Source: Podarcis cretensis
Lineage: Eukaryota
Direction of reading: 5' to 3'
DNA: 64,000 nt
Assembly (NCBI GenBank): GCA_951804945.1
Contig: OX638149.1
Location: 117,056,001 to 117,120,000, forward strand
The notes beneath the pieces were generated by a model. That model was not told the origin of the DNA, searched no databases, and was given only the letters and a program-made list of their open reading frames with translations. Shown here piece by piece: positions 2,139 through 18,920 of this stretch. The translations under genes and the position numbers were made by a program. Numbering within the stretch: position 1 is the first letter of the stretch; the number at the start of each line of letters is the position of its first letter.

Positions 2139-4015
2139 TGAGCAGTCTAGATATCTGGGTAAATGCCCCCTACCCCCCAAAACACTGAGCTTTATATAAT
2201 TTTAAGAGAAGAATGAAGTGCCACGTCATAATTTTAAAACTATCAGTAGTGCCACAATAGTTCAACTTGCATATAAAAACACTCATTATAGTTCTTTTAA
2301 TTCTCCCAGTGAACTTACTGAAACTCACACAATACTTCCTTCTTGCATATTTTAAAATTTGGATTAGATAGATTTTTTAAGTATAGATTTTAATAAGACG
2401 CACATAAAAATCCAAATGGACGATTCGCTTTTAAATTAGATAAATACAGATATGTACTCGAAATGAGATATTATCCCTAGGAAAACAATTCGTGAACATA
2501 CGATCCATTTGCACGATGGGTGTATCAGTGATGAACTGAGGATCCCGAAAAGGGCTCAAAAAGTTCTATTCCCCCACCTGCCCTGCTCCAGCCTGCACAT
2601 GCACAGAGAGCACAAAATGACAGGGATGGGGTACCTGTGGCCTTTTGGATTCCAACTCCCATCAGCCCCAGCCAACATGGCCAGTGGCCATGGATGATGA
2701 GAAATGGAACCCAACAACATCTGGAGGGTCACCGTTTCCCCATTCTTGCTTTGAGAGTTACACATATGCCAAGCAGAAATGAGTTGCACTGTGCAGGGGG
2801 CAGAAAGAGGGAAAGTAGCTTGGGGATGAAGAAGGCATGCACAGACCACTCATTTCCCCCAGACATAACAACTATGCTGCTCTCCATGTGCCCAAGTTGA
2901 TATGTAGGTGGGATATACGGGTAAAGAAAGGAACTTCCAGGCATTGGTTGGCGCTACGCTCAAGGTGCATATGGATCATGTCCCTAACTACAAAAAGAAA
3001 ATTCTGATAGGACTTTTAAAAACATGTCATCATAAAAAGCATGTAGGAGTTTACACTGAAAATATTGGCAAATTTTGAGCTGTGCAAAAGCATGTCAGAA
3101 TGATTTATGTATATATACATATATATACTCATATGGGTATATATATCATTTTGATGTGCATGTTGAAAGCTACAGCATTTCTATATGTATATATTTGTGG
3201 AACCAGAGCATGGGGAATTGTTCTTGGGAACGCCCGCTCTCTTTGTATTGTTCATGAATGTTTCTGCATATGACTCAGTACAGCATGAAATTATCCTTAG
3301 AATAGTTCTTTGTCACGGCCCAGATCAAACCTGCTCATGTGCTCCTCCACTGCCCCCAAATATCCAAAGCTGCCAGTTTCCAGAATAGTATTGTTCATTT
3401 TTCATGCTCACTGAAATTCTGGATGAAAAAGGAGAACAAAAGTTTGAGGTTCACTAGGTGTACACGGAGGATAGAACTACACGTGATGCTCAACATGGGA
3501 CTGCCACCAACAGTGACCTGTGTCTTCCCCTGCCTTTCCCTGAAATACTTTAATCAGACTTCCTATGCCATTTCCCTGGCTCCACATCATTGGCTGTTGC
3601 TTGCAGGGGTAAGGGAACACCAGGTGGGGATAAGTGGATTTCCCAAAATCAGTGAGAATATTGCTCAAAATTGGCATCAATCCTGGTACCACTTCTCCAC
3701 CAGCTGTTGAAGGCGGCAGGGTGGGTGGCACAGGTGGCAGCGGGAAACAACATGGATTGATCTAACAGTGCATTCTTAGGCTTCACTTTTCAGAAATCAG
3801 TCCTGTTGAATTCACTAGGACTTGTTTCCAGAAAACTGTGTATTGCAGCCTAAACATTACAGTGGAGGGGGAAGAACTCAGTGCAGTGTTGCCGTATCAA
3901 GTATCTCTTTAGTTCTGATCTCCCAACTTGTTCATCAGTTTGCTCCCCAAGTGAAACTAGAAACCTTACATGTATATCTCTCTCTTTTTTATTTTGTTTA
4001 TTTTCACTTGAGCAG

Positions 4016-4204
4016 ACCTCAAAGTAGCTTGGTATAGCAAAGACAAAGAGATCAAGCCATCCCGCTTCTTTAGGATGACTCAGTTTGAAGACACTTTCCA
4101 GCTTGAGATTGCAGAAGCATACCCAGAGGATGAAGGAATTTACACCTTTGTCGCAGGCAATTCTGTTGGCCAGGTGTCAAGTACAGCTGCACTGAAGCTG
4201 GAAG
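4016..4204 (+). CDS. TTN: TTN exon (about exon 44), 189 nt, C-terminal half of the Ig domain
   Basis: Long pyrimidine tract, gagcag|; DLKVAWYSKDKEIKPSRFFRMTQFEDTFQLEIAEAYPEDEG...LKLE; |gtacag. Confidence 0.95.
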
Positions 4205-5610
4205 GTACAGAGTACTGTCTAAATAGACACTGTGTAAATTTGCATGTGTTTTAACATTAATTTATATTTATATATATCTTTAAAACTACGTGTAATTGTC
4301 TGTCATGTCAGTGTCTTATAACTCGAATAACCAACCCCATTGTCTGATGTCGATAGCGCCCATCTGGTCTCCACAGTATAAATTCTGCAGAGTGTCATTT
4401 CACGTTGTTCCAGTGTTCCATAGTTTTCATCTTTCCATTCTGTTTCCAATGAGTATCCAGCACGCACCAAAGATAAACGAATAAATAAACCCCCTCTGAC
4501 ATAACCAGATTCCCAGAATTTATTTGTCATGCCAAATCACATTTCTGTTCAAAGGAAGTGAAGGCGTGTATCTAAAGAACTGTGCGATATAACTCAATAC
4601 AGACAATGGGGGTTTAGGTTTGTCAAACAGGAGCACTCCCAGTCCCATGTTGTGTGGCAAACCAATTCCGAGACTGAGGTCAGAAGGATGCCTATTGCCT
4701 GCCAATGCTAAAAAGCAGTGTCCCAGAGTCTCCTCCTCCTCCTTTTTTGTATCTTGCAATACAAAAATGTGTGATGTGCTGATTGTTCTTTCCGCCTGTT
4801 TACAAGTGGGAAGCTCATCACAAAATGAGGCCACATCACATGGTTTTTACATTAATACATGCTAAAAGGGAACAAAGAGAAGATGTAGAGCTGAGATGGC
4901 TGCAGCCACCATGCATGTGCCATAATATCTAATTCTAGTTTTGCGAGGCATGAGGGTGCTTAAAAAGCAAATTGTGATATGGCATGTGGATGATGAGCGA
5001 ATCTGTTTATTTTCTGTCCGTGTCACTTTCACACATGACTCCGTCCCATTTCCACATTAATTAAACGACATTAAATAATTAGGCATCGCTAATGTTGGCG
5101 AAATTGCATTTATGTATGAAAAAGACGAGCACCTTACACTGAAAATAGAAATGAATGCCCCGTTGAAAAGAAATGTCTAACCTCCTTACCATTCCAACAC
5201 CTGCTGAAACACAAGGGGAAGCCCAGAACCTGCAATACAATATTGATTTTGTTGCTGTTTTTCAGGGTAATATATCTAGAATGATTTGAAATGCCTGTAG
5301 CAGGCATTAAAATCATTGGGATTTAATTGACTTGCATCATGCCAATTCAAATGTGAATATTTGTCAGAGGAAACAAATATTCAGATACGTGACACGAAGA
5401 GCATTTATACATTTAAACTCAGCTGGTTTTCAAATGTTTTGCTTTCCACTCTGCTTGTACCCAGAGCCTAAACATTGTCACTTAGGGAAAGGACGAGTGT
5501 CATGCTGTAAGAATGTGTTTGTAAATAAAGAGAAAGGGCATGTAGGGCGGCTAGAGAAAATTGACTGGTGTGCAGGGTAAGAAATTAAAAGTTGACATGC
5601 TTCTTTTCAG

Positions 5611-5982
5611 GCTTTAAGGTTGAAGAAGTTACCTCACATTCCCAAAGGCATGTTTCTTCATCTTTCTCCATTAAGAAGGACCCCGTTGCCCAAAGGCCCA
5701 ACTTTATCCAGCCTATCTCAAGCTGCAGAGTATGCAGCGGGGAAACAGTCAGATTCCAAGCCAGGGTTTCCGCCATGCCGAAACCAGAAATCCTCTGGTT
5801 TCATAATCAACAGCTAATGTTGCCAACCAAAGGCGTAGTTTTCCATTTTGATGAGTCGACAGGCACAGCCACATTGATAATAGTAGATGCTTTCTCAGAA
5901 AATGCCGGGCAGTACTCTTGCAAAGCCAGAAATAGTGCTGGAGATGCAACTTGCATGGCTACACTTACAGTGACTGCTGAAG
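5611..5982 (+). CDS. TTN: TTN Novex-1 exon (exon 45), 372 nt
   Basis: ttttcag|; GFKVEEVTSHSQRHVS...GETVRFQARVSAMPKPEILWFHNQQLMLPTKGVVFHFDESTG resembles mammalian Novex-1; |gtaaag. Confidence 0.93.
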
Positions 5983-6655
5983 GTAAAGCCCCGCTTTTGT
6001 TCCTAGGGAATTCTGTTTGTTGCATAAACCACACTTTTTCTACACTGTGACTAATGACCTTCTCTTCTTCCTCGTTTCACACTTTTTTATTTTATTTTTA
6101 GAACTAGCAGTGCCGTCACTAATGTCAGTAGTCCTAGCGGTAACCAAATAAACCACTCTCGTTTCCTGTACTTTCAAAGTGTCGTGTCATGTAGAACTTG
6201 CATCCTGGTCTATTGCTCAGATAATACACCTGTTTTTTGGTAGACTAAACACACGCACACACTTCAAGGCAGTGAGTTGTTGGCAGTTGGTAGCATTCTC
6301 TGACGTTTGCTCTACTCGGTTTTTAAAGGGAAAGAAGGGATATTGTTAGGGTATCAAAAAAAAAAAAATGCCTTCAAATTGCCATGGACAACTGCAGTGG
6401 AAAGAAGAGTCAAATAATTACCACATATTACCAGCATGAGCATATTTCATTTTTTCCCATCCATCATTGTGGCTGTTCTTTTTTGTAAAATATTTGCTGC
6501 CTCCTGAGGGCACCTTTAATGAATGCAGCTGGCATGCAAGGCTTTCAAAGGAAGACATTTCATTCTTATCATCTATGGCATAGCGTTTTGCTTTTAACGT
6601 GGCCCACTGCAGTGCATTAGATATTAATCATATGTTTTGTTACTTGATTACACAG

Positions 6656-7234
6656 TGCAAGCCTTAGATAGGCTAAGTTCTGGGAAAGATGTAAAAGAGT
6701 CTATCCAGGCAAAATCAGAAGTGCATATTGCTTCCCCCTTTGCAAAGAAGGAAACTCAAGTGTATGTAAAAGAAATTAAGTCCAAGCAGGAGGCGTCACG
6801 GGAAATGGTTGTGCAGGCCTTTGAACACCTTTCTGGAACTTCTACTGTGAAAGCTGAGATTGGGACGGAAGGAGAAAGCTTCAGTGCCACAGCCATTACT
6901 CAGAAGTCAGAAAGCACCATGGTATCTGCAACCTCAATTCAAGTGCTGAGAGAGGCGCCCCCAAAGATTCTTCTGAAACTTCATGATCTCACTGTGAGAT
7001 GCGGCGACACTGCTCAGTTTATGTGCGCTTTGGAAAGCGAAAACTTCTCGGACGTTTTGTGGTCCCACGAGGGAGAAACTTTACAGGAATCTGAACGAAT
7101 AAGGCTGTCACAAAATGGAAGTGTTCTCTTCCTCACTATAAGCAATGTCCAACTTTTAGATCAAGGACTGTACAGCTGTACTGTTCGTAACGACTATGGA
7201 GAAGTAACAACAACTGCTATACTAACCGTAGAAG
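6656..7234 (+). CDS. TTN: TTN Novex-2 exon (exon 46), 579 nt
   Basis: cacag|; VQALDRLSSGKDVKES...LTVRCGDTAQFMCAL...SQNGSVLFLTISNVQLLDQGLYSC resembles Novex-2; |gtggtt. Confidence 0.93.
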
Positions 7235-8428
7235 GTGGTTATCTGATTTTTAACATTATATGATGTTACTTCATTTCATCCTCATCATCACTGCCTGTAG
7301 CTCCTGTGCTAGTATTTAATTTAGAATTACAGTTTTGAGTTCCATTTCCCCCAACCCTCTACATTTCGGGCTCTATTCATAAAGTAACCACATGCACAGG
7401 TACTCTGTGTAATTTGCTAGTAAAGTAGGAACCATACCTTCCCCTGGCAAGTTACAGAGGTATCGGGTTCATCTCCAAAAGCAAGGACTAGTCAATTTGC
7501 AGTGAAATACTGAAGCAATTTGGAAGTTTCCTATAGGATCAAAGAAAAGTACAAGAAGTTGTTTACAATTATTTCTTCTTTACTGGCTGTTAATTTTTGT
7601 GAAAGCTTTTTTAAAAAAAAACAACATGCTATGTAGTCTAACTTTTAATTTAGGCTATTCTAGTTTACAAAGAGTTTTATGCAGATATTGACTGCCATTA
7701 ACAGAACCATTCTCTGAATGCCCTTTCCCACCCATACCAGTTTTCTTTTAAAATTGGAATTTTGCATCTTTTTTTCATTCTTTTATTGACCACAACAATT
7801 TGTTACGGTTAAGGCAAAGAAACTTCCACATGTCATGTGCCTTGCTTTTCCTTATCCAACACCAGATGATGAAGGTGCCACAAATGTTTTTACCTATAGT
7901 CCCCTCTTGTGTTTAAGCAATGAAGACTAAGAATTGACTTTTGGTTTTCTTCTCATGGCATGGAAATAGCTGCACGATTAGCACACAGAAGAGTAGGAAC
8001 AACAACTTGAACCCCAAACAGTGCCAAATATCCTGCTTTTACAAACTGGTGGATTTCCTGACTTTTCTACACATCACTGAAAAGCATTGCAGCTGCAGCT
8101 GCCTTCTAGGCTATGCAGAAGAAGCCTTGACTAAAACTGAAGATGTCCTTGTAAAAATTACTGTGGGCCAATCCTATTTCCTCTGATGTCAGTGACGCAA
8201 ATCCTGTGGATCTAATTGCACCTTCTATTTAACCTGGCATGAATAGAGCCCTTAAATGTGGAACACGATAGTATAAAAGACTGAAAATTCAATTGTTTTT
8301 TGCACTAACACGCTGAACATTCTTTTTACCATACTAATGGCTTTTATATACATATATATTGCTGAGTATAGATTTTTTTTTTTTTGCTGCAAAACATCTA
8401 ATCTTATCCTAACTTTATTCTTGCCTAG

Positions 8429-8950
8429 CTAAAGAAGCACAAGCCAGAACAGTAACAAAAATTACCCTTGAAACAGATACTAAAAGCATTAAAACAAGCA
8501 AAGAGTCTCAGATTAAAACAGCCTATGAATATAAACAAGAGTCTTCCACGGAAACAACGAGCGTGACAATATCTACAGCTCAAAAAGCACAAGAAGCTGA
8601 GAAACTGAGGATCAGAGACTACTACCCTGATGTTGTGCCGTGCGAAGACATCGCCGAAACTGGTGCCACAGTACCAGTCTTCCTTGAAACTCTGCCCCCA
8701 GAAAGCTTTGTCAAAGAAGGAGATAATGTCTCGCTGTTCTGTGTAATCAAGGGGTTCCCTACACCTTGTGTCATCTGGCTGTATAACCAGCTAATAGTTG
8801 AGGATTCCGCATTGTGCTCTTTGAGGCACGATGGCCCACTGTGCAGTTTAAACTTACTGAAAGTTAAAGAGAATCAGAGGGGTATATACAAGTGCAGAAT
8901 AGTTAATTCTGCGGGACAAGCCGAGTGCAGCACACATCTGAGAGTGACAG
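8429..8950 (+). CDS. TTN: Additional Novex-like TTN exon (linker + one Ig domain), 522 nt, phase 1-1
   Basis: cctaac branch-like site, ttgcctag|; open 174 codons AKEAQARTVTK...PVFLETLPP...FCVIKGFPTPCVIWLYN...GIYKCRIVNSAGQAECSTHLRVT; |gttggc. Confidence 0.85.
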
Positions 8951-9224
8951 GTTGGCAACTGCATGTTCCTTCCATATACTCCTCTTGTGTACCGTCGTTG
9001 AAACCTGTTCAATCCACAGTCCGTGATATAATGAAGCGGTTGTGGATTGTTGAATATTTTCCTCATGGTGTTAAAGGCATGTTAAAGGCATGTTGAATTA
9101 GAAAAAGAAAGAGACGGAGAGGGTGGGGATAGGGAAAGGCTCCTTTAAAATGCTGTGGGGGGAAATCCCCAGTACTTTAGCATCCTCCCACTATTTGTTT
9201 TCAACTTATCAGGCACTTCCTGGC

Positions 9225-9262
9225 ATGTATGTGTATGTATGTATGTATGTATGTATGTATGT
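9225..9262. repeat. (ATGT)n microsatellite
   Basis: Direct reading. Confidence 0.9.
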
Positions 9263-9365
9263 TTATGTGGTTTTTTCCTCCCCCTGTCAATGCAACATTT
9301 TTATTTTCTTCTCTTGCAACATTCAACTCGCTTTCCATTAAATCACACTTTTATTTTTATTACAG

Positions 9366-9422
9366 CCCTGGAAAGAGTTCTGCAGGAGAAGATAGAACAA
9401 CAGATTGAAATGGAAGTGAAAG
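9366..9422 (+). CDS. TTN: TTN exon 47 equivalent, 57 nt
   Basis: ttacag|; ALERVLQEKIEQQIEMEVK; |gtacag; size and peptide match the short exon preceding Novex-3/N2B. Confidence 0.93.
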
Positions 9423-10557
9423 GTACAGTCGCACACAAACGTTTATATGGAAAGGAAGGTTTAGCATTAAAAAAAACCCCAGTAACCCCTTTGAAAAGCT
9501 GATACGTATGACCAAGAAAGCAAAACATATTCTGAAGCATATCTGAATATGCCGCATGTTTTGTTTTAATATGCTCAGGATAACCTGCATTATTACAAAA
9601 AGGATACAAGTTTTAAAGTCCATTTAAAACTTTTCATTTTCACAGATTTGCCCGTCTTTACTTTCACGTCGTGCTATGCAGCTGGTTGCAAAAGCTTTTC
9701 TTTCGTATACCTTCTTGTAATGCATGGGACAATTTTAGACTGTTGCTTCGGATGGTTTCAGAACACATTAGTCCTCTAACATGAATGAGTTGGTCAAAAA
9801 CCATGGGCTGGCATCTGTTTAAGATGCAACACTTTGCAAGATGGGAAAGGGGCCTGTTTCCATTGTTGACCTCCCATTTCATGAACATGATATTAATTCT
9901 CCTTTATGGAAATTCTTACACTGGCTTGCAGATAGCATAGTTGGGCCATGTTGCTTGCTTTCTTTCCTTTTTTCTTTTTTTGCATAACATTGTGAAGTTA
10001 GCAGCTGTATTAGTTCGAATAAACGCCTTCTCATTTTGTTTTAGCAAATTACTTACAGTTGACTTTTTTTTCATATCTTTGAAAAATATCTTTTCTATTG
10101 TTTGACCATTTTAACCCACAATCAAAGGGATCAGAAAGGGCGTTTATTCTACTGTCTGCAAGTCAGGTAAGATTCCCCTCCCCTTCTTTGCAAAGAAGAA
10201 ATGCAAAAATAAAAAAATACAAAAAAATAAAAAGCTTTTCAGGCAGTAAAACATGCACCCACAGGAACATGTCATTTTGAGATTCATTTTGCTTGTTGAT
10301 GAAGAAATTTCCGCAGTTGGAAGAAAGAACCGACAGCGAACGATTTTCGTGTCAGAATCTTTAAAACAGAGCAAGGCGTTGCGTTTATTCGAACAAATAT
10401 GGTGAGTGAATTTTTTTTTTAATGGATTTGTGATGAATCTGTTGCATGCTCATTATTTAATTTCATTTATAGCTATTTCATTTCTTTTCATTTTTTTTTC
10501 CCAACTGTGTGATGGAAAGGACGGAGTACGCTGTAATGTAATGGTATTCTTTTGCAG

Positions 10558-13500
10558 AACTGTTCTTCGGTGAAGAGCCAGAATATGCAGAAAACCCGGC
10601 TGGCAAACAGGCTGCTTCTGCTGATTCCATAGATCTTCCGCAACATGGATCTCTCCCGGATCTGAAGGGCACAAGTGGAATGTCATTTATGCATTCCTGG
10701 CCTGAGAAACAGAAACCTTCTTTCACACAAAAGTTAAAGTATCGGTCTGTTATGGCTGGAGAGCCAGTTGTTTTCCAGTGCAAATTGAGTGCCCTTCCTT
10801 TGCCCCAAATAACATGGTACCATAACAACAGGCAAATCCCCCAAAGTCTGCGAAGGCGAATAAAGAGTGAGAGCTGCATGGATATGCACAGCTCCAGTCT
10901 AGAGGTAAAAGAAGTTCAGGAAAGGGACTCAGGGAGTTACAAGGTTTTTGCTATTAACAGTGAGGGTTCAGCTGAGTCCACTGCTTCATTGTTGGTAGCA
11001 CATGGGGACAAACAAAATGCCAAATACCTAGAGTTTTTGAGACAGTCAGAGAGTACTTGTGAACGTATAGAGCATCTGGCGCAGAAAAGGAGAGGCGATA
11101 GGCTCAAAGTTGATCTGCGGTGTATTGGTTCTCCGTTTGATAAGAAGCAGGAAACCGAGAAAGCGCTGAGAGCTTTTTCTCCTACCAAAGGGATGGTGAG
11201 GACCATAAGCTTTGAAAGCCTCTCGTCCTTAAGAAAAGGATTTGTATACGATAAGGATTGGGTAAGAAACAGGCGTGCAGGTAGGGGGTGTAGTGAGGGA
11301 GAGGCTTTGCTTGACGAGGAAACAAAAGTAAAGTTGCAGCGACTTCGTGAGGCAAAAAAAGCCATGCTGGAAAAGAAAAAAGTGCTTCTATCACAGGGAT
11401 CAACAGAGGAACACCTTCCCTCTGCGAAAATTGTAGGAATTGGAAATAAAAGAGGCCCGTTGGCTCGTTCAATCTGTGCAGCATCTCATGTAGAGACAAA
11501 GGGACTTGCTTTCCAAACTATAGAGCAGATTAATGAAAAGGCCATGTTACCGACAGCGTCAGGCACTAAAGAAGTTACTGTAGGAAGTTCTAGCAGGGAG
11601 CTTGAGAAAACATCAGAAAAATTTCAGGTTAGAATGGAACGGATCCTGGGCCTTCCTGGACCTCCTCAGATTCTCCAGGATTTTCCTGATAAAAGCAATA
11701 GGGGAGGAATGTTCCGGAGACAGGAGGTAGTAGCCTCTAAAGGGAACGTGAAGCCACAAGTTCCAGAAAAAGATCCAAAGGCAATTGGGAACACAGGATG
11801 GATGAACTATACTTATACCCATGGAAAATCAGAAGAAGCAAGAATGGATACTCAAGACTTCAAGGCGACAAAAACCATTAAGAAAAACCCCTCTCCCCTG
11901 GTATATGTACTTTTGACTGATGATGTCAGTGAGAGAGAGAAACATGATGTCAGTGTGAGAGAGAAAGATGATGTCAATGAGAGAGGGAAACCTGATATGA
12001 TGATGTCTGATACAATCACATTGAACATTAATGAACCTGCGCCTGTTTTTGAGATCAGGGAAATGAGCAAAACTGTAGAAATGGCAATGTCAGTAAACAA
12101 ATGCTCCCTTGAAACTGAAGAGTCTGCGTTGGCTGAGGTCACTGAAACAGAAACGGAGATAACAGAACCACCTGACAAATTGGTGAGGCCTCTTCCAAAA
12201 TATCTGGAGCCATGCCCCCCTTTCTTTGTTCATGAAATTGAATCACAAGAAGTAAGCGAAGGAGAGAGCTGTATTTTTAATTGTGATTTCCAAGGCCATC
12301 CACAGGTCACAGTCACTTGGTATAACAATGACAAGCCGCTGTCACGTAACCAAGAATGTAACATCAGAACCACAGAAAATAGTTCCACACTGACATTCTC
12401 CACCATTGTCCGTGATCAGGAAGGCTCCATTACTTGTGTGATATTTAACCAGCATGGGACTGCTACAACTTCAGGAACGCTAAAAGTGAAAGTAAAGGAA
12501 AAGCCTGAATTTGAACCATTCAGTATATGTAAAGTTGAGCTTTCACCAGACTATGCAGAAGAAGAAGAGGAACTCAGTTTGGCATTTGAGTATTCAAAAA
12601 AAGATGAACCTGATTTAAGTATGGATGGCAGAGCCACTCTCCTCCCTCCACAGATTAACCTGCCCAGACCTTGCATTTCTGATCCAGATCTGCTTTCACT
12701 TCCTGTGGAAATAAAAATAATCGCTCCAACCCCAACTCCAGAACAAGATGAAGAATTTAAAGAATTAACTCAGTTTGTTGAGTTTGTGCCTGAAGAACCC
12801 CCTGAAGAACAAACTTCTGCAGGACTAAAGCATAAGTTTAAATTTTCATTTGATGTGGCTCATGAACCCCCCAAAATCTTAAAAGAAATTCAACAACACG
12901 TTAGATGTAGAGAAGGGGATTCGGTGGTACTTGAATGCTTAATATCTGCTGAACCACTGCCAATTGTAACATGGCTGCAGAATGATGGGATTTTAATCCC
13001 CACTGAAAAGTTTTACTTTGAGGAGGGAGATGGCGTTTATAGGTTGCACGTTTGCAAGGTTTCCATATCTGATGCTGGCATGTACAAATGTGTTGCCGAA
13101 AACAAAGCTGGCATAGTCGAAACTGTTTGTTATCTTTCAGTTGATCCCACCATGGAAATATTTTTGGATGAAACTGAGCTCAAAGCTGTCGAAAGCCAAG
13201 TCAGAGGAACTCAGGACCAGATTGCAAAAGAACATTTGGGGAGTTATTTTGAATCCTCAGTAGGACTTACGGAAAGTAGTTTTAGCGATAAAGCATATTC
13301 TGTAAGCCAGCAGTTCCACAGTGTTAGTAAACTGGATTTCGGAGGGGAAGAAACAGGTAGACCAGCCCAGGAAATGGAATCCCAGCTGCCAAATTATCTA
13401 AATGATGTAATGAAGTCTCTACTTGCTGATGAAAGTGAACACCCACATTTCCAGATCTGGGAGCAAAAAGAAGTATATAAAGAGATGGAGTCAAATGCAA

Positions 13501-16500
13501 AAGAAGAACAAAAGGTAGCCAGTATTTCAGAAATTTTAGCAGACACTCCACTTGTTGAGGAATTTAGAGATACAGCTGCTGAGCAAGCCAAAGTAGAAAG
13601 CACATATAAACACGCAGCTATGGAAATATCATCAAGCTGTCAATTTGAAATGGTTGTAGAGAGTCATACGGAAAGAGAGAAGTCAGTTACAGGAGAAGAC
13701 ATTTCTGTAAGTCATGATGTAAAAGATGAAGGGAAAACTGTAAGAGACATATTTGAGAAGATGCAGAAGATTTCTAAAGATCAGGAATTCACACTAGCAT
13801 ATCTGGAACCAGAATCGGAGAGTCTTCAGTATGGACCAACTCAAGGTATATCACACGAGGAAATACCTTCAAGTGAGATAATCACAGACATACCATTTAA
13901 GGAAGTTAAAGAACAAATCTGCACTTTTGAGCAGGAGTTAAGTGCAAAAGAATCTATGGATCATAGGTTTTCCACACTGCTGCAAGAAGACAGTGATATC
14001 CATGAGAAGGATCAATGTTTTACTGATATATTAAGCAAGAATTCTAAGGATCAGTCAGCCATAGAAAAGAGAAGTATGTTACATCTGCAAAATATAAACA
14101 ATGAACTCCAAAGTGCACCTAAGGAAGAACAACTTGACGATGAGGTTGTAAACAAAGAAAATCTGCAGGAGGCAGTAGCCAATGAACACCAAGAACTGTT
14201 CAGAGTAGAAAAAGAGCAAGCATTCAGAAGTTCTATCTCTGACAAAGAGAAAGACACTTTGATCCATGAGGAAAAGTTCACTAGCTTTGGTGAGGGGAAA
14301 GAGAAGGAAATCCATTGTGGTGAAGAATTGGTAGGAAAAGCAGATGTAAGTGTGCCTGAATTTGTATTTGATTTAAAACAAATGCTTACTATTAAAGACA
14401 ACGTAGATAAGAATGCTCAAGAACAAACTGAAACTCAGGAACTCATAGGCCCAAGCTCAATTGCTGGCAAACTTGATATCTCACTTGATGGAATGCCGGT
14501 TCATGCAGATACAGAAACTGCTGATGAACAACAAAACAGACTTAAGTCAGAGGAAGTGTATGCCAAGGAAAAATGTTTGGTTTCTGAAATAATACAAGCT
14601 AATACAAACAAAATCACAGAATCAGCCCAAATCGGCATATCAGCTCTAGAACAAAGATTGGATTCTAGTCAAGGTATTTCTAAAGAGGGTGAACTTGTAA
14701 AGGAAGCAAATTATGCCCAAGAAGATGCATTATGCCTAGAGAAGGAAGAATTTGGTTTACATCCAGCTTCCTTAGGCACAGAAACTGTTGTTGAGGAACA
14801 AGAGGAAATCGTTATCAAAGAACTTTCAGATTTTGAAAGAACAGAGCTAGGCAAGATAATAGAAAGTGCAGAAATAGACACATCAGCTGAGAGTTATAGC
14901 CAGGATATCAACAAAGAGAAGGAACTGGGAGAAGGAATATTTGATTTAAAGCAACTTTCTCTGCATGTAGAAAATGATAGTCAAAACCAGGACGATGTCC
15001 TTGTGAAAGCTCTGCATTCCGGTTCTGAAGAAATGAAACTAGATGTCAACAAAACCCCAGAAATTGTACAAGCTCCCACTTTGTTTGTAGAGCAAGAAAG
15101 AGCTTCTCAACAAGAGCTTTCCCAAGATACTGAACCAGTAAAGACAGAATACAGTTTCAAGGAAGCTATCTTATCCTTTGAAGAAGAATTTCCCTCCAAA
15201 CAATCTAATTATAACATAGAAATTGTTGTTCAGAAGGAAGTTCACATTGAGGAAAAACAGACTCATGAAAAGGATCAAGATTCTGTTTTTACTGTTCCAC
15301 ACACAGAAATTATTGGGGGGAAATATGTTAAAACTGAATATTCAGTTGCTGAAAGCCTGGAAACTGACGTGGCTGAACATGCACACAAAAAATCAGATTT
15401 AGAGGTTTCCAAAATAAATGAAACTATAAAGGAAGAAAGTGGTGCACTGCAACAATCATTACCCCCTAAAAATGGCATTTTTGACTTAAAGCAAGCTTAC
15501 TCAAATATAGAAAAAAATAGCCACCTACCAGAGACAGAAGAAACATACTTAAAAAACCTCTATTCCGCTTCTGAAGGAGTTCAGGCTGATACACAGAGTA
15601 CCATGGAAAATGCACGTCAAATAATGCATTCTTGCCAAAAAGATTCCTTCTCTTTGAAAACCATGATGGAAGAAGAAAATGTTCAGGAATGTACATCCCC
15701 CGAAAACAAAGACATTGATTTAAAATTAGCTTTTCTGAATCTAGAAAATGTTGATCAACAGCAAGAAGAGAAGTTGCCACGGGGGCAAATACCTCTCAAA
15801 TTCCTGTATTCTGCTTCAGAGGAAATGGAAGCCTTTCAAGGGCAGCAGTTGAAATCCACTGAAAGCAATGTCCTCTACAAAAGCAGCAACCACAAAGAAT
15901 GCACCCTGTCCCCAGAGAAAGAACTACAAACACAAGAGCAAATGTTTGATCTGAAAGCACATGCTGCATCTTTATCACAAGGCTTTTCATTGAAGGAGGC
16001 TGAAACATTACCAGAGAAAGAAGTGGGTTCCTTTAATCTGAGGTCGGCTTTTGAGATGGTAGGTACAGAGACAGAGAGTTTCATAAAACAGCTACAGAAG
16101 GCAAGCGTACCAGAGGAAGGAGTTTCTCTAAGTGAGGAACTTCGTCAGAGCTATACGGTGCGGCTGGAGGGAGAGAATTCCCTAGAACAAAAATTACAAG
16201 CGGAAGCAGAGCTGACAGTGACACAAATACTGAAGAAGGCCTTAGAAACTGTTAGCCTTTCTACTGAACAGGAGTCTGCTACAAAACGGCATTGCAATCA
16301 GGAGGGGAAAATTTCTGAGGAGGAAGTGCTTAGGATGCCAGATGAAGCCTTTCTGTGGGGGCAGCCAGAACCCATCCCTCTCAGTCAGTATTTTCAAAAC
16401 CAAGTGGAAGAAACTGGTGTCCTCGAAGCTGATAGTTTCATATCTGATTTGAAGAAAGCTGCACATGGAAAGAAGCCTCAAAGCGTTCATGAAACAGGGG

Positions 16501-18920
16501 GAGAAAAGGCACGTGTTACTGAGAGGACTACTGATATCGAGAAGCCTTTTGATAGCCAAATAATGCCTGACAAACAACCATCATCACACAGCTCAGCCAA
16601 GGAACCCTCGTTGGCCCAGTTCCTTCTTTCCTTAAAAGATGAATCACTTATAAGCCAGGGAGGTGTGACAGGAGAATGTGAAACTACTGAATTCATGAAT
16701 CCTCCTCTAGGAAATCTAACTGAAGGGGCTACCAAAGAAAGTACTCTTCACGCTCAAGAACCTCCTCCTCGTCCTCCTACTCCTCATGAAGGAGCAGATT
16801 TCTCTCTTACAAAATATTTGCTTGCTGCCAGAGAACAGGAGATCCCAGTTGCCAGAGACAGCTCATCCAGGACTCTGACCAGGGAGGGATCTATCACATC
16901 CTTGGAGGTTGAAGATGTTACATTTAGCACCGTATATGATTATTACAAGCAACAGCAAGAACTGACCCGCCCTTTTTCTCCCGAGTCAGAAATGTCTATT
17001 GATATTGACAGCATGAGCGGAGACGAAATGGTAGAGGCTGAGGGATTCTACACACCACCATCTTCAGTGGATAATTTTGAATCTCCCATGTCTTTTGAGT
17101 CTTATCACACACCAATTGGCAGCCCAGAACGATATTCTACGCCTTCAGAGGAACGATACTCTACACCGTCAGAGGAGCGATATTCTACACCGTCAGAGGA
17201 GCGATATTCTACACCATCAGAGGAGCGATATTCTACACCAACTGCAGAGTCAAACAGAGCTTCAATGAGGTCTCCTGCAAATCTAGTGAGGGGAAGTACC
17301 CCACCAGAACGTTACCAAACACCCCGTGGCTCTCGTTTGCAACACAGGAGCTCTTCTCTCGAAGAGCTACGTGCTGAAATGTTCGGTACACCTTGTGAAG
17401 CATTGGAACCAAAGGGAAACGAAATTCCCCCTGCATTTATTAAGCCATTGACTAAAAGAAAAATCTATGAGAACACCACATTGCGTTTTATTGCCGAGGT
17501 CATAGGGATTCCCATACCTGATGTGAAATGGTATAGAAATAAGTCATTGCTTGAGCAAGATGAAAGGGTCAAAATACAAAAAGAAGGTGATGTTTGTATC
17601 TTAGAAATCCGCAACATTCAAAAAACAGACGGAGGGGAATATATGTGCCATGCAATAAATATCATAGGCGAATCCAAGAATATCGCACAAGTACAAGTGT
17701 TACCCCATGATGGAAGAGCTTTGGCTCTTCCTCCTCCAGTAACTCATCAACAGGTTATAGAGTTTGATATAGAACAAGGGTCAGCGTCACGAACACCTTC
17801 GCCTCAGGAAATTCTCCTGGAAGTAGAGCTGGATGAAACTGAGATTAAGGAATGTGAGAAGCAAGTGAAAATAGCCACTATTCCTGAACTCACTTCTGAT
17901 AATCAAAGTATGATTGTGTCTCTTGATGTTCTCCCTTTATCTCTGGTGGAACACACAACGGCTTCTTTTGGGAAAGAGAACAAAGATGTTACAATTGACT
18001 TTGAAGTCACCGAGATGCCTCCACGCTTTACCACCCCTGTCTTTGACATAGAGGTTCCAGAAAAATCTGAGGCATTGTTTCATTGTACAGTCGCAGGCTG
18101 TCCTACCCCAGTAGTGCAGTGGTTTAAGGCAAATCAGTGCATTTCTTCAGACGCTTTGAAGTACACTGTTAGAAGTGAGAATGGAAGTCATAGTCTTAAA
18201 ATTCAGAATGTACAGCATTCTGATAGTGGCATGTATTTGTGTAAGGCTGTTAATGCTGTTGGAGAAGCTATATGCAGGTGCTTGTTAGCTGTAACCGAGG
18301 GCCAAGGGGCTCTTGCAGTGACCAATGATGGAAGTCAGGCAGATTTAAGTTTGGATAGCACTAGTGGTAGGCCTCAAAAGATTGATTTGCTTGTTGATAA
18401 TACTATCCAAAATGGCAACCAGACGGAAATAGAGCTGGAGTTTGAGTTTGAAGGTGACACTGATGATTCTCAGAAAGCTGTTAAATTGGTAGCTGTTACA
18501 GAACAGGAGCAGGAAGAGGAAGGAGAAGCATGTGTAAATATTAACTTTGATGTATTTGCTGAACCATCCAAAGAAGAGCAGATTGAATTTAAAGGTGAGA
18601 GCACAGACAGCTGCAGCTTTGAATTTCAAGTTACAGAAGCACCTCCAAAGTTTATGAAACATATTTCTGATTGTGCTTCTTTCAAGGGTACCTCTGCAAG
18701 TTTCCAGTGTTTAGTAGTTGGTTCTCCAAAACCGGCAATAAGCTGGTTTAAAAATGGGGCATTGATTCATGAAGAGAGATACTGTGTGGAGGAAAGTCAG
18801 GAAGGTTGTCACAGTCTGACTATAAGAAGCTTAGTCCAAACTGATGAAGGCGAGTATAAGTGTGTAGCAACCAACAAAGCAGGGACTGCCTATAGCAGTG
18901 CTTTGTTAACAATCTGCTGA
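10558..18920 (+). CDS. TTN: TTN Novex-3 alternative terminal exon (exon 48), about 2787 aa, six Ig domains, TGA stop
   Basis: tttgcag|AA CTG TTC is in frame with ORF 10680-18920; KPSFTQKLKY, ERYSTP repeats, PPAFIKPLTKRKIYENTTL; ends ALLTIC-stop. Confidence 0.96.
11919..11990 (+). repeat. 24-bp coding tandem repeat (DDVSEREK-like) x3 in Novex-3
   Basis: gatgatgtcagtgagagagagaaa / catgatgtcagtgtgagagagaaa / gatgatgtcaatgagagagggaaa. Confidence 0.9.
17127..17240 (+). repeat. 24-bp coding tandem repeat (ERYSTPSE) x4.75 in Novex-3
   Basis: gaRcgataYtctacRccNtcagag repeated. Confidence 0.95.

Follow-up and report, generated by a model that had tools for sequence, protein, structure and literature searches.

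Among the titin exons described so far, the closest to the one reported here are Novex-1 (exon 45, Ig I16) and Novex-2 (exon 46, Ig I17). Both lie between exons 44 and 47 in phase 1-1, and each consists of a unique linker followed by one I-set Ig domain. Their inclusion is low, and their donors are prone to read-through. Novex-3 (exon 48) is one large exon, which holds six Igs and its own stop and ends a short titin. In PMC5852582, exons 44 to 48 were compared with the human reference; the accessible sections of that work describe a further, frame-shifting exon of the cluster, termed exon 48', and give the stretch from Novex-2 to exon 47 as a single intron in human, chicken, lizard and frog. 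They also report Novex-1 together with Novex-2 in chicken and frog, and thus textbook exclusivity fails even for the known members.

In the numbering of human Ig domains, I16 and I17 (PMC11033294, in part) are followed by I18-I23 in Novex-3 (PMC13649281, in part), which leaves no slot for another domain. For elephant shark titin, only Novex-I to -III are named in the available part of PMC12241362, and that of PMC7370890 holds nothing on the exon described below. In titin, the Igs I67 and I69 carry a triad of cysteines, CysB, CysF and CysG, which is known to permit disulfide isomerisation (PMC5766482, in part).

The DNA analysed here, called the window, is a stretch of 64,000 nucleotides from the lizard Podarcis cretensis (contig OX638149.1) and covers an I-band part of titin. 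The 372-nt Novex-1 and the protein tree likewise suggest a lizard-like sauropsid. Between Novex-2 on its 5' side and exon 47 on its 3' side lies a 522-nt exon (8429..8950, + strand), named exon X in the following (Table 1). The flanking exons were matched to exon 44, exon 47 and the Novex-3 start of bat titin, and their numbering agrees with Table 1 of PMC5852582 (exon 44, 189 nt; Novex-1, 372 nt; exon 47, 57 nt); intron 45 measures 673 nt here, against 671 nt in the published lizard. Exon X shares with Novex-1 and Novex-2 its place between exons 44 and 47, its phase, the unique linker with one I-set Ig, the low inclusion and the read-through-prone donor. Unlike them, it has neither a human exon nor an Ig number, no named mammal matches it, and it is found joined to Novex-2 and not in its place. 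Exon 48' is likewise a conserved exon of the same cluster that had gone unannotated; however, it shifts the frame and came to light by comparison with the human reference, whereas exon X is coding, preserves the frame and would escape a comparison anchored on human. A description of exon X was not found in the literature consulted on Novex and titin exons, and 'novex-4' gave no match; the chicken (2007), zebrafish (2017) and turtle (2018) titin papers, as well as figures, were outside this scope. Exon X is an overlooked titin exon, whose sequence is already present in NCBI and UniRef, filed as unrelated genes.

Table 1. Features of the Novex cluster and of exon X (positions in the window)
Feature	Position	Strand	Basis or remark
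Titin exon 44, 189 nt	4016..4204	+	RNA joints to 5611 and 9366; 85% to bat titin
Novex-1 (exon 45), 372 nt	5611..5982	+	both RNA joints seen; size matches PMC5852582 Table 1
Novex-2 (exon 46), 579 nt	6656..7234	+	donor splices to exon X in RNA
Two ACTAAY motifs (QKI-type or distal branch-point candidates)	8304..8338	+	sequence
Branch-point candidates, pyrimidine tract and acceptor AG of exon X	8398..8428	+	sequence; RNA joint lands here
Exon X, phase 1-1 titin exon (linker and I-set Ig)	8429..8950	+	sequence, Pfam; acceptor used in RNA contig
Variable T/E/K/S/A-rich linker part (aa 1-55)	8431..8595	+	identity birds 58-61%, gar 40%, shark 25%
Conserved pre-Ig segment (aa 56-81, contains YYPDVVPC)	8596..8673	+	identical 16/26 shark, 15/26 gar
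I-set Ig, CysB C104, CysF C155, CysG C166, also C113, C129, C138	8674..8949	+	
Donor G/GTTGGC, then TGCATG at +10	8950..8965	+	sequence; read-through peptides
11-nt tandem duplication (two GCATG) and in-frame TGA 9094-9096	9069..9096	+	sequence
Titin exon 47, 57 nt	9366..9422	+	RNA joints; bat titin match
Exon 48' candidate, 85 nt	10317-10401		AG and GT present; fits PMC5852582
Novex-3 start	from 10558		bat titin match
N2B start	from 25470		

Exon X is a real, intact and ancient titin exon. It is flanked by an AG (8427-8428) and a GT (8951-8952), and its frame is free of stops, divisible by three and in the same phase as the adjoining exons. Upstream of the acceptor, CCTAAC (8408-8413) and CTAAT (8398-8402) are candidates for the branch point. 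Pyrimidines make up 13 of the 17 nucleotides before the AG, against a range of 9-15 in 47 further Ig exons of titin from the window. The donor reads CAG/GTTGGC, and GTTGG also starts the intron behind 6 of the 50 other Ig exons in the window. The sequence thus bears out the earlier note, in which an intact, frame-preserving 522-nt phase 1-1 exon with CCTAAC, a pyrimidine tract and a GT donor had been described. Not one of 500 dinucleotide shuffles of 7235-9365 gave an open frame of 174 codons on the + strand. Exon X is also single-copy, the next-best match in a search of its own genome being 41%. That exon X is merely a chance frame was rejected on the shuffles, the intact and conserved frame and the predicted Ig fold.

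The encoded linker of 81 aa is rich in T (17%), E (12%) and K (11%), and it is followed by an Ig that matches the Pfam I-set family PF07679 with an E-value of 3.5e-17 (62.7 bits against a cut-off of 23.7). There are seven cysteines, six of them in the Ig and one in the linker. This agrees with the T/E/K-rich linker of about 80 aa and the complete, Cys-rich I-set Ig that had been noticed before. With AlphaFold2, a complete beta-sandwich was predicted, its Ig blocks reaching a pLDDT of 95-99 (about 98 for the domain) on an alignment of 66 rows; 14 close sequences alone gave 39.5. The predicted domain overlays titin I21 and I67-I69 with an rmsd of 0.8-1.1 A. C104, C155 and C166 align to the three cysteines of I67 in 3B43, and by these positions in strands B, F and G the domain is classed as a cysteine-triad Ig. 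Unlike I67 and I69, it carries three further cysteines, and all six are found in the shark sequence as well. A search of the ESM Atlas with exon X returned generic I-set clusters only. The conserved segment before the Ig is predicted to be unstructured, its first 20 residues having a pLDDT of 54-57. As a separate observation, the YYPDVVPC segment (8596-8673), kept from shark to lizard, is a candidate for a binding or tyrosine-phosphorylation motif.

Proteins were searched in three length ranges, 304-2000, 95-303 and 79-620 aa, which yielded 6, 15 and 24 matches; giant titin isoforms fall outside these ranges, up to 15 members per cluster were considered, and most Logan members carry no species name. 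Identity over the full exon is 68-71% in birds, including chicken, 59% in gar and 49% in sevengill shark. Partial models come from two turtles, a frog, reedfish and pike, along with unnamed Logan frames. The expectation that the exon may already appear in non-mammalian gene models was thus correct. When 234 collected proteins were compared with the Ig, 83 reached at least 50%, and the next best stood at 41%. In the same proteins, the exon X Ig is conserved as well as or better than that of Novex-2 (birds 76-80 vs 68-72%, gar 70 vs 53%, shark 58 vs 55%). An Ig that is 58% identical to shark, together with the intact frame, points to selection on the protein.

In NCBI and UniRef, the orthologues are found only as misnamed stand-alone models or fragments. 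XP_046777693.1, XP_054066394.1, XP_015214368.1, XP_067843003.1 and XP_058888175.1 contain Novex exons, and models of this kind from birds, gar, sturgeon and shark are labelled 'MLCK-like', 'MyBP-H-like', 'SPEG-like', 'myopalladin-like' or 'twitchin-like'. The chicken model XP_046777693.1 and similar ones are stand-alone proteins of 262-541 aa. Exon X is part of them, in most cases with an identical acceptor and a join to Novex-2 or Novex-1, but they are named as unrelated genes and end by read-through of the donor; they are read here as pieces of titin. No named mammal was among the matches of the protein searches or of three cluster look-ups with exon X. In a search of representatives, the best 150 matches were taken up by multi-Ig proteins, with one new frog-like orthologue (P0143) and no mammal. 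When metagenome contigs were scanned with a pattern for the exon 47 donor, 11 loci were obtained, and none matched titin.

A quick tree of 80 Igs over 91 columns, from which lizard middle-Ig domains beyond 41000 were left out, places the 11 exon X rows in one clade (SH-aLRT 99) with a long stem and a branching order like that of the species. Neither Novex-1 nor Novex-2 is the sister of this clade, the deep forks of the tree being poorly resolved. The Ig is identical at 25/92 positions to Novex-1 and at 20/92 to Novex-2, and identities range over 22-27%. The likeness to Novex-1 and Novex-2 that the earlier note had described holds for the linker-plus-Ig layout and not for the Ig phylogeny. A recent duplication of Novex-1 or Novex-2 was rejected, given the separate clade and the 22-27% Ig identity.

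Contigs from 4 of the 24 listed runs were aligned to 3900-9900. Two of these runs, X1 and X2, belong to the same study; that these two are RNA is presumed, and the GT..AG joints show spliced molecules. Exon 44 is joined to exon 47 in 4/4 runs and to Novex-1 in 3/4, while Novex-1 is joined to exon 47 in 2/4. Thus, exon X is skipped in the main isoforms. The joint from Novex-2 to exon X (7234>8429, GT..AG), which the earlier note had put forward as a check, was seen in one of the 4 runs, in a single contig of depth 4.2, whose shorter side of the joint covers 28 nt. In this contig the two exons are joined, and exon X is therefore not an exclusive alternative to Novex-2; mutual exclusivity with the other Novex exons fails. 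The two other proposed junctions, 4204>8429 and 8950>9366, were absent from the 4 runs, as was any joint into Novex-2. Of the additional I-band isoform that had been proposed, the acceptor side was thus seen and the joint to exon 47 was not. In a gene prediction from frog (P0076), exon X is joined to exon 47.

In both contigs that cross it (runs X1 and X2, depth about 4), the exon X donor is read through, although contigs cannot show transcript ends. Depth over exon X (4-6) equals the intron background (about 2-6). In intron 47 it is as high as in the exon X read-through, which fits unspliced precursor. A contig of run X8 is spliced into Novex-1 and then reads through the Novex-1 donor. As Novex-1 is a proven cassette, read-through alone does not define a last exon. 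Differences to the RNA organism, counted on all but 19 of the aligned pieces, are fewer in exon X than in its flanking introns (7/557 vs 21/559, p 0.011, in run X2; 5/509 vs 16/380, p 0.003, in run X1). Few differences were also observed in the intron stretches 8059-8384 (4/326) and 9469-9900 (4/432), with about 4% in intron 44; both stretches are likely to be conserved regulatory sequence.

Just behind the exon X donor lies an apparently deeply kept signal that was absent from the earlier note. The sequence across the donor is G/GTTGGCAACTGCATG, and it contains a TGCATG at +10, which we take, from the name and positional rule of the motif, to be an RBFOX-type site. QKI acts on ACUAAY and RBFOX on UGCAUG. 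The conservation of UGCAUG was deduced from read-through peptides alone: past the end of the Ig, 78 of the 83 orthologous proteins carry a tail of the form GW[QH][LM]H[VA]. The other five comprise the query, three chimeric models and the frog model in which exon X is joined to exon 47. Many of the 78 tails are close bird sequences, but shark, gar, reedfish, frogs and lizards also contribute. The donor G/GT-TGG is preserved in all 78, and the changes L>M, V>A and Q>H are each compatible with a GT donor and TGCATG. After this constant start the tails diverge, stop after 13-58 aa and are out of register between related sequences. A constant start with a variable length speaks for selection on RNA signals and not on a C-terminus; GWQLHV as a functional C-terminus was rejected for the same reason. 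We read the tails as the trace of a conserved donor with a putative RBFOX site, not of a conserved peptide. In the window, the + strand holds 34 TGCATG. Read-through past the donor ends at TGA 9094-9096 after 48 codons.

Upstream of exon X, both ACTAAY motifs that had been reported, at 8304 and 8333, are present. The pair is unusual: when the upstream intron was shuffled 2000 times, two such motifs fell within the last 150 nt in 8 cases, a test chosen after the motifs had been seen. As a side observation, two ACTAAT follow the Novex-1 donor at distances of 68 and 136 nt (6050-6123) and mirror the pair before exon X; five of the window's 21 + strand ACTAAY fall within 6050-8338.

In the human gene, the accessible text of PMC5852582 and PMC5874998 places no exon between 46 and 47, in line with the earlier statement that only Novex-1, -2 and -3 are described at this place of human TTN. 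Table S5 of PMC5874998 gives sub-threshold junctions from 42 human muscle samples. Exon 44 is joined to 179618736 in 18 samples with 454 reads (44>45, 11 reads; 44>46, 58 reads), and 179618355 to exon 47 in 2 samples with 224 reads. The two junctions outline an unannotated exon of 382 nt, not a multiple of three, in TTN intron 46 (chr2:179,618,355-179,618,736, hg19), which the consulted text of that paper does not discuss. Its use is about 0.3%, relative to 132,355 reads for 47>50. It ends 447 nt before exon 47, and exon X ends 415 nt before its own; the match is one of position only, the human exon being 140 nt shorter and having exon 44, not 46, as its upstream partner. It may be a decayed exon X or an unrelated cryptic exon. 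Among titin chains in the PDB, none exceeds about 30% identity to the exon X Ig, and the Igs of bat Novex-3 titin do not exceed 30%. The proposal of an ancestral Novex-type exon, lost or unannotated in mammals, thus stands as to its ancestry (shark to birds) and its missing human annotation; for the loss, there are the searches that matched no named mammal and a human candidate placed by position only. Neither outcome that had been named as speaking against the exon was obtained: no annotated human exon matched, and a joint was seen and the frame is conserved.

Exon X is probably a rarely included titin cassette that follows Novex-2 and goes on to exon 47 in a minor isoform. Most transcripts skip the Novex cluster or take Novex-1, and in a small share Novex-2 is joined to exon X, as in the joint seen once. 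The donor of exon X would then join exon 47 slowly, possibly helped by RBFOX bound to the conserved UGCAUG at +10; QKI on the ACUAAY motifs upstream may keep inclusion low. An included exon X would add 174 residues in frame (the 81-residue linker and the Ig) to the proximal I-band, near the Z-disk end of the spring. Novex-1, Novex-2 and exon X (124, 193 and 174 codons) could be stacked in frame and so lengthen the spring, and the cysteine triad might make the added Ig redox-tunable. More tentatively, the coding exon may have decayed in mammals and left the 382-nt, frame-breaking exon in about 0.3% of human muscle transcripts.

The main rival reading, conceivable if rather unlikely, is that exon X is an alternative last exon. 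Transcripts joining Novex-2 to exon X would then read through the donor to the stop and be polyadenylated, giving a short titin of an estimated 3,800-3,950 aa, smaller than Novex-3. Only then would exon X resemble Novex-3, which has its own stop, whereas exon X keeps a donor and lacks a conserved C-terminus. The contigs of X1 and X2 that read through, the missing joint to exon 47 in the 4 runs and the NCBI models of birds, gar and shark, which end past the donor without that joint, are all in favour of such an ending. However, the tails vary in length and register as described, and the GT donor is preserved from shark to lizard. AATAAA is absent from 8951-9365, where the only related signals are weak variants and an ATTAAA at 9337, inside the acceptor region of exon 47. 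Moreover, the depth of intron 47 equals that of the read-through, and Novex-1 reads through likewise. The very low apparent inclusion, the stop at 9094, the apparently conserved intronic motif and a human candidate exon that breaks the frame and is still spliced (PMC5874998, in part) would fit splicing that is mainly regulatory, with the unspliced donor leading to a premature stop and transcript decay and the protein being secondary. This is improbable, as the shark identity of the Ig and the intact frame require selection on the protein.

That Novex-2 and exon X (sometimes with Novex-1) form a small gene of their own inside titin, under an internal promoter, is very improbable. The stand-alone models such as XP_046777693.1 and the lack of any listed RNA joint into Novex-2 would suit it, but the model starts vary (inside Novex-1, in intron 45 or inside Novex-2), the three exons are all in phase 1-1, and for the heart of chicken and frog, the accessible part of PMC5852582 gives RT-PCR products that link exon 42 with Novex-2. 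A dead relic or chance frame is hardly credible: contig depth at intron level is what one would see, yet the conserved intact frame, the exon X clade, the shuffles, the predicted Ig fold and the lower number of differences than in introns oppose it. For non-mammals, the dead-relic reading is already refuted by the intact, conserved frame.

A wider and somewhat doubtful proposal is that exon X is a fourth Novex exon common to jawed vertebrates, its coding frame having been kept for about 450 million years together with the RBFOX site, either stacked onto Novex-2 or ending a second short titin, and that this frame was lost in mammals, with the 382-nt frame-breaking remnant still spliced in human muscle. 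If this remnant reading is true, variants in TTN intron 46 could raise the use of the 382-nt exon and give unrecognised titin-truncating alleles; a latent frame-breaking exon there would be relevant to deep-intronic variants. The exon maps of titin follow the human gene, and thus exons lost in mammals vanish from comparative work. Recognition of exon X corrects a set of bird, gar and shark models that are wrongly named as genes of their own, and the spring region of non-mammalian titin gains an Ig that is rich in cysteine and strongly conserved. It also provides a testable case of exon loss in the evolution of heart and muscle.

Some minor observations concern the rest of the cluster. The exon 48' candidate has a weak pyrimidine tract (7/17) and a TGCATG downstream at 10443. 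The Novex-3 frame (10558-18920) comprises about 2,790 codons and six Igs; the exon is shorter both in the published lizard (8,039 nt) and in human (6,455 nt). Two sites within this frame, 11920-11996 and 17130-17239, carry 24-nt tandem repeats that keep the frame. In the shark model P0232, residues 132-228 form an extra Ig, with a linker like that of Novex-2 on one side and the Novex-2 Ig on the other; it groups with none of Novex-1, Novex-2 and exon X, and is possibly another Novex-type domain.
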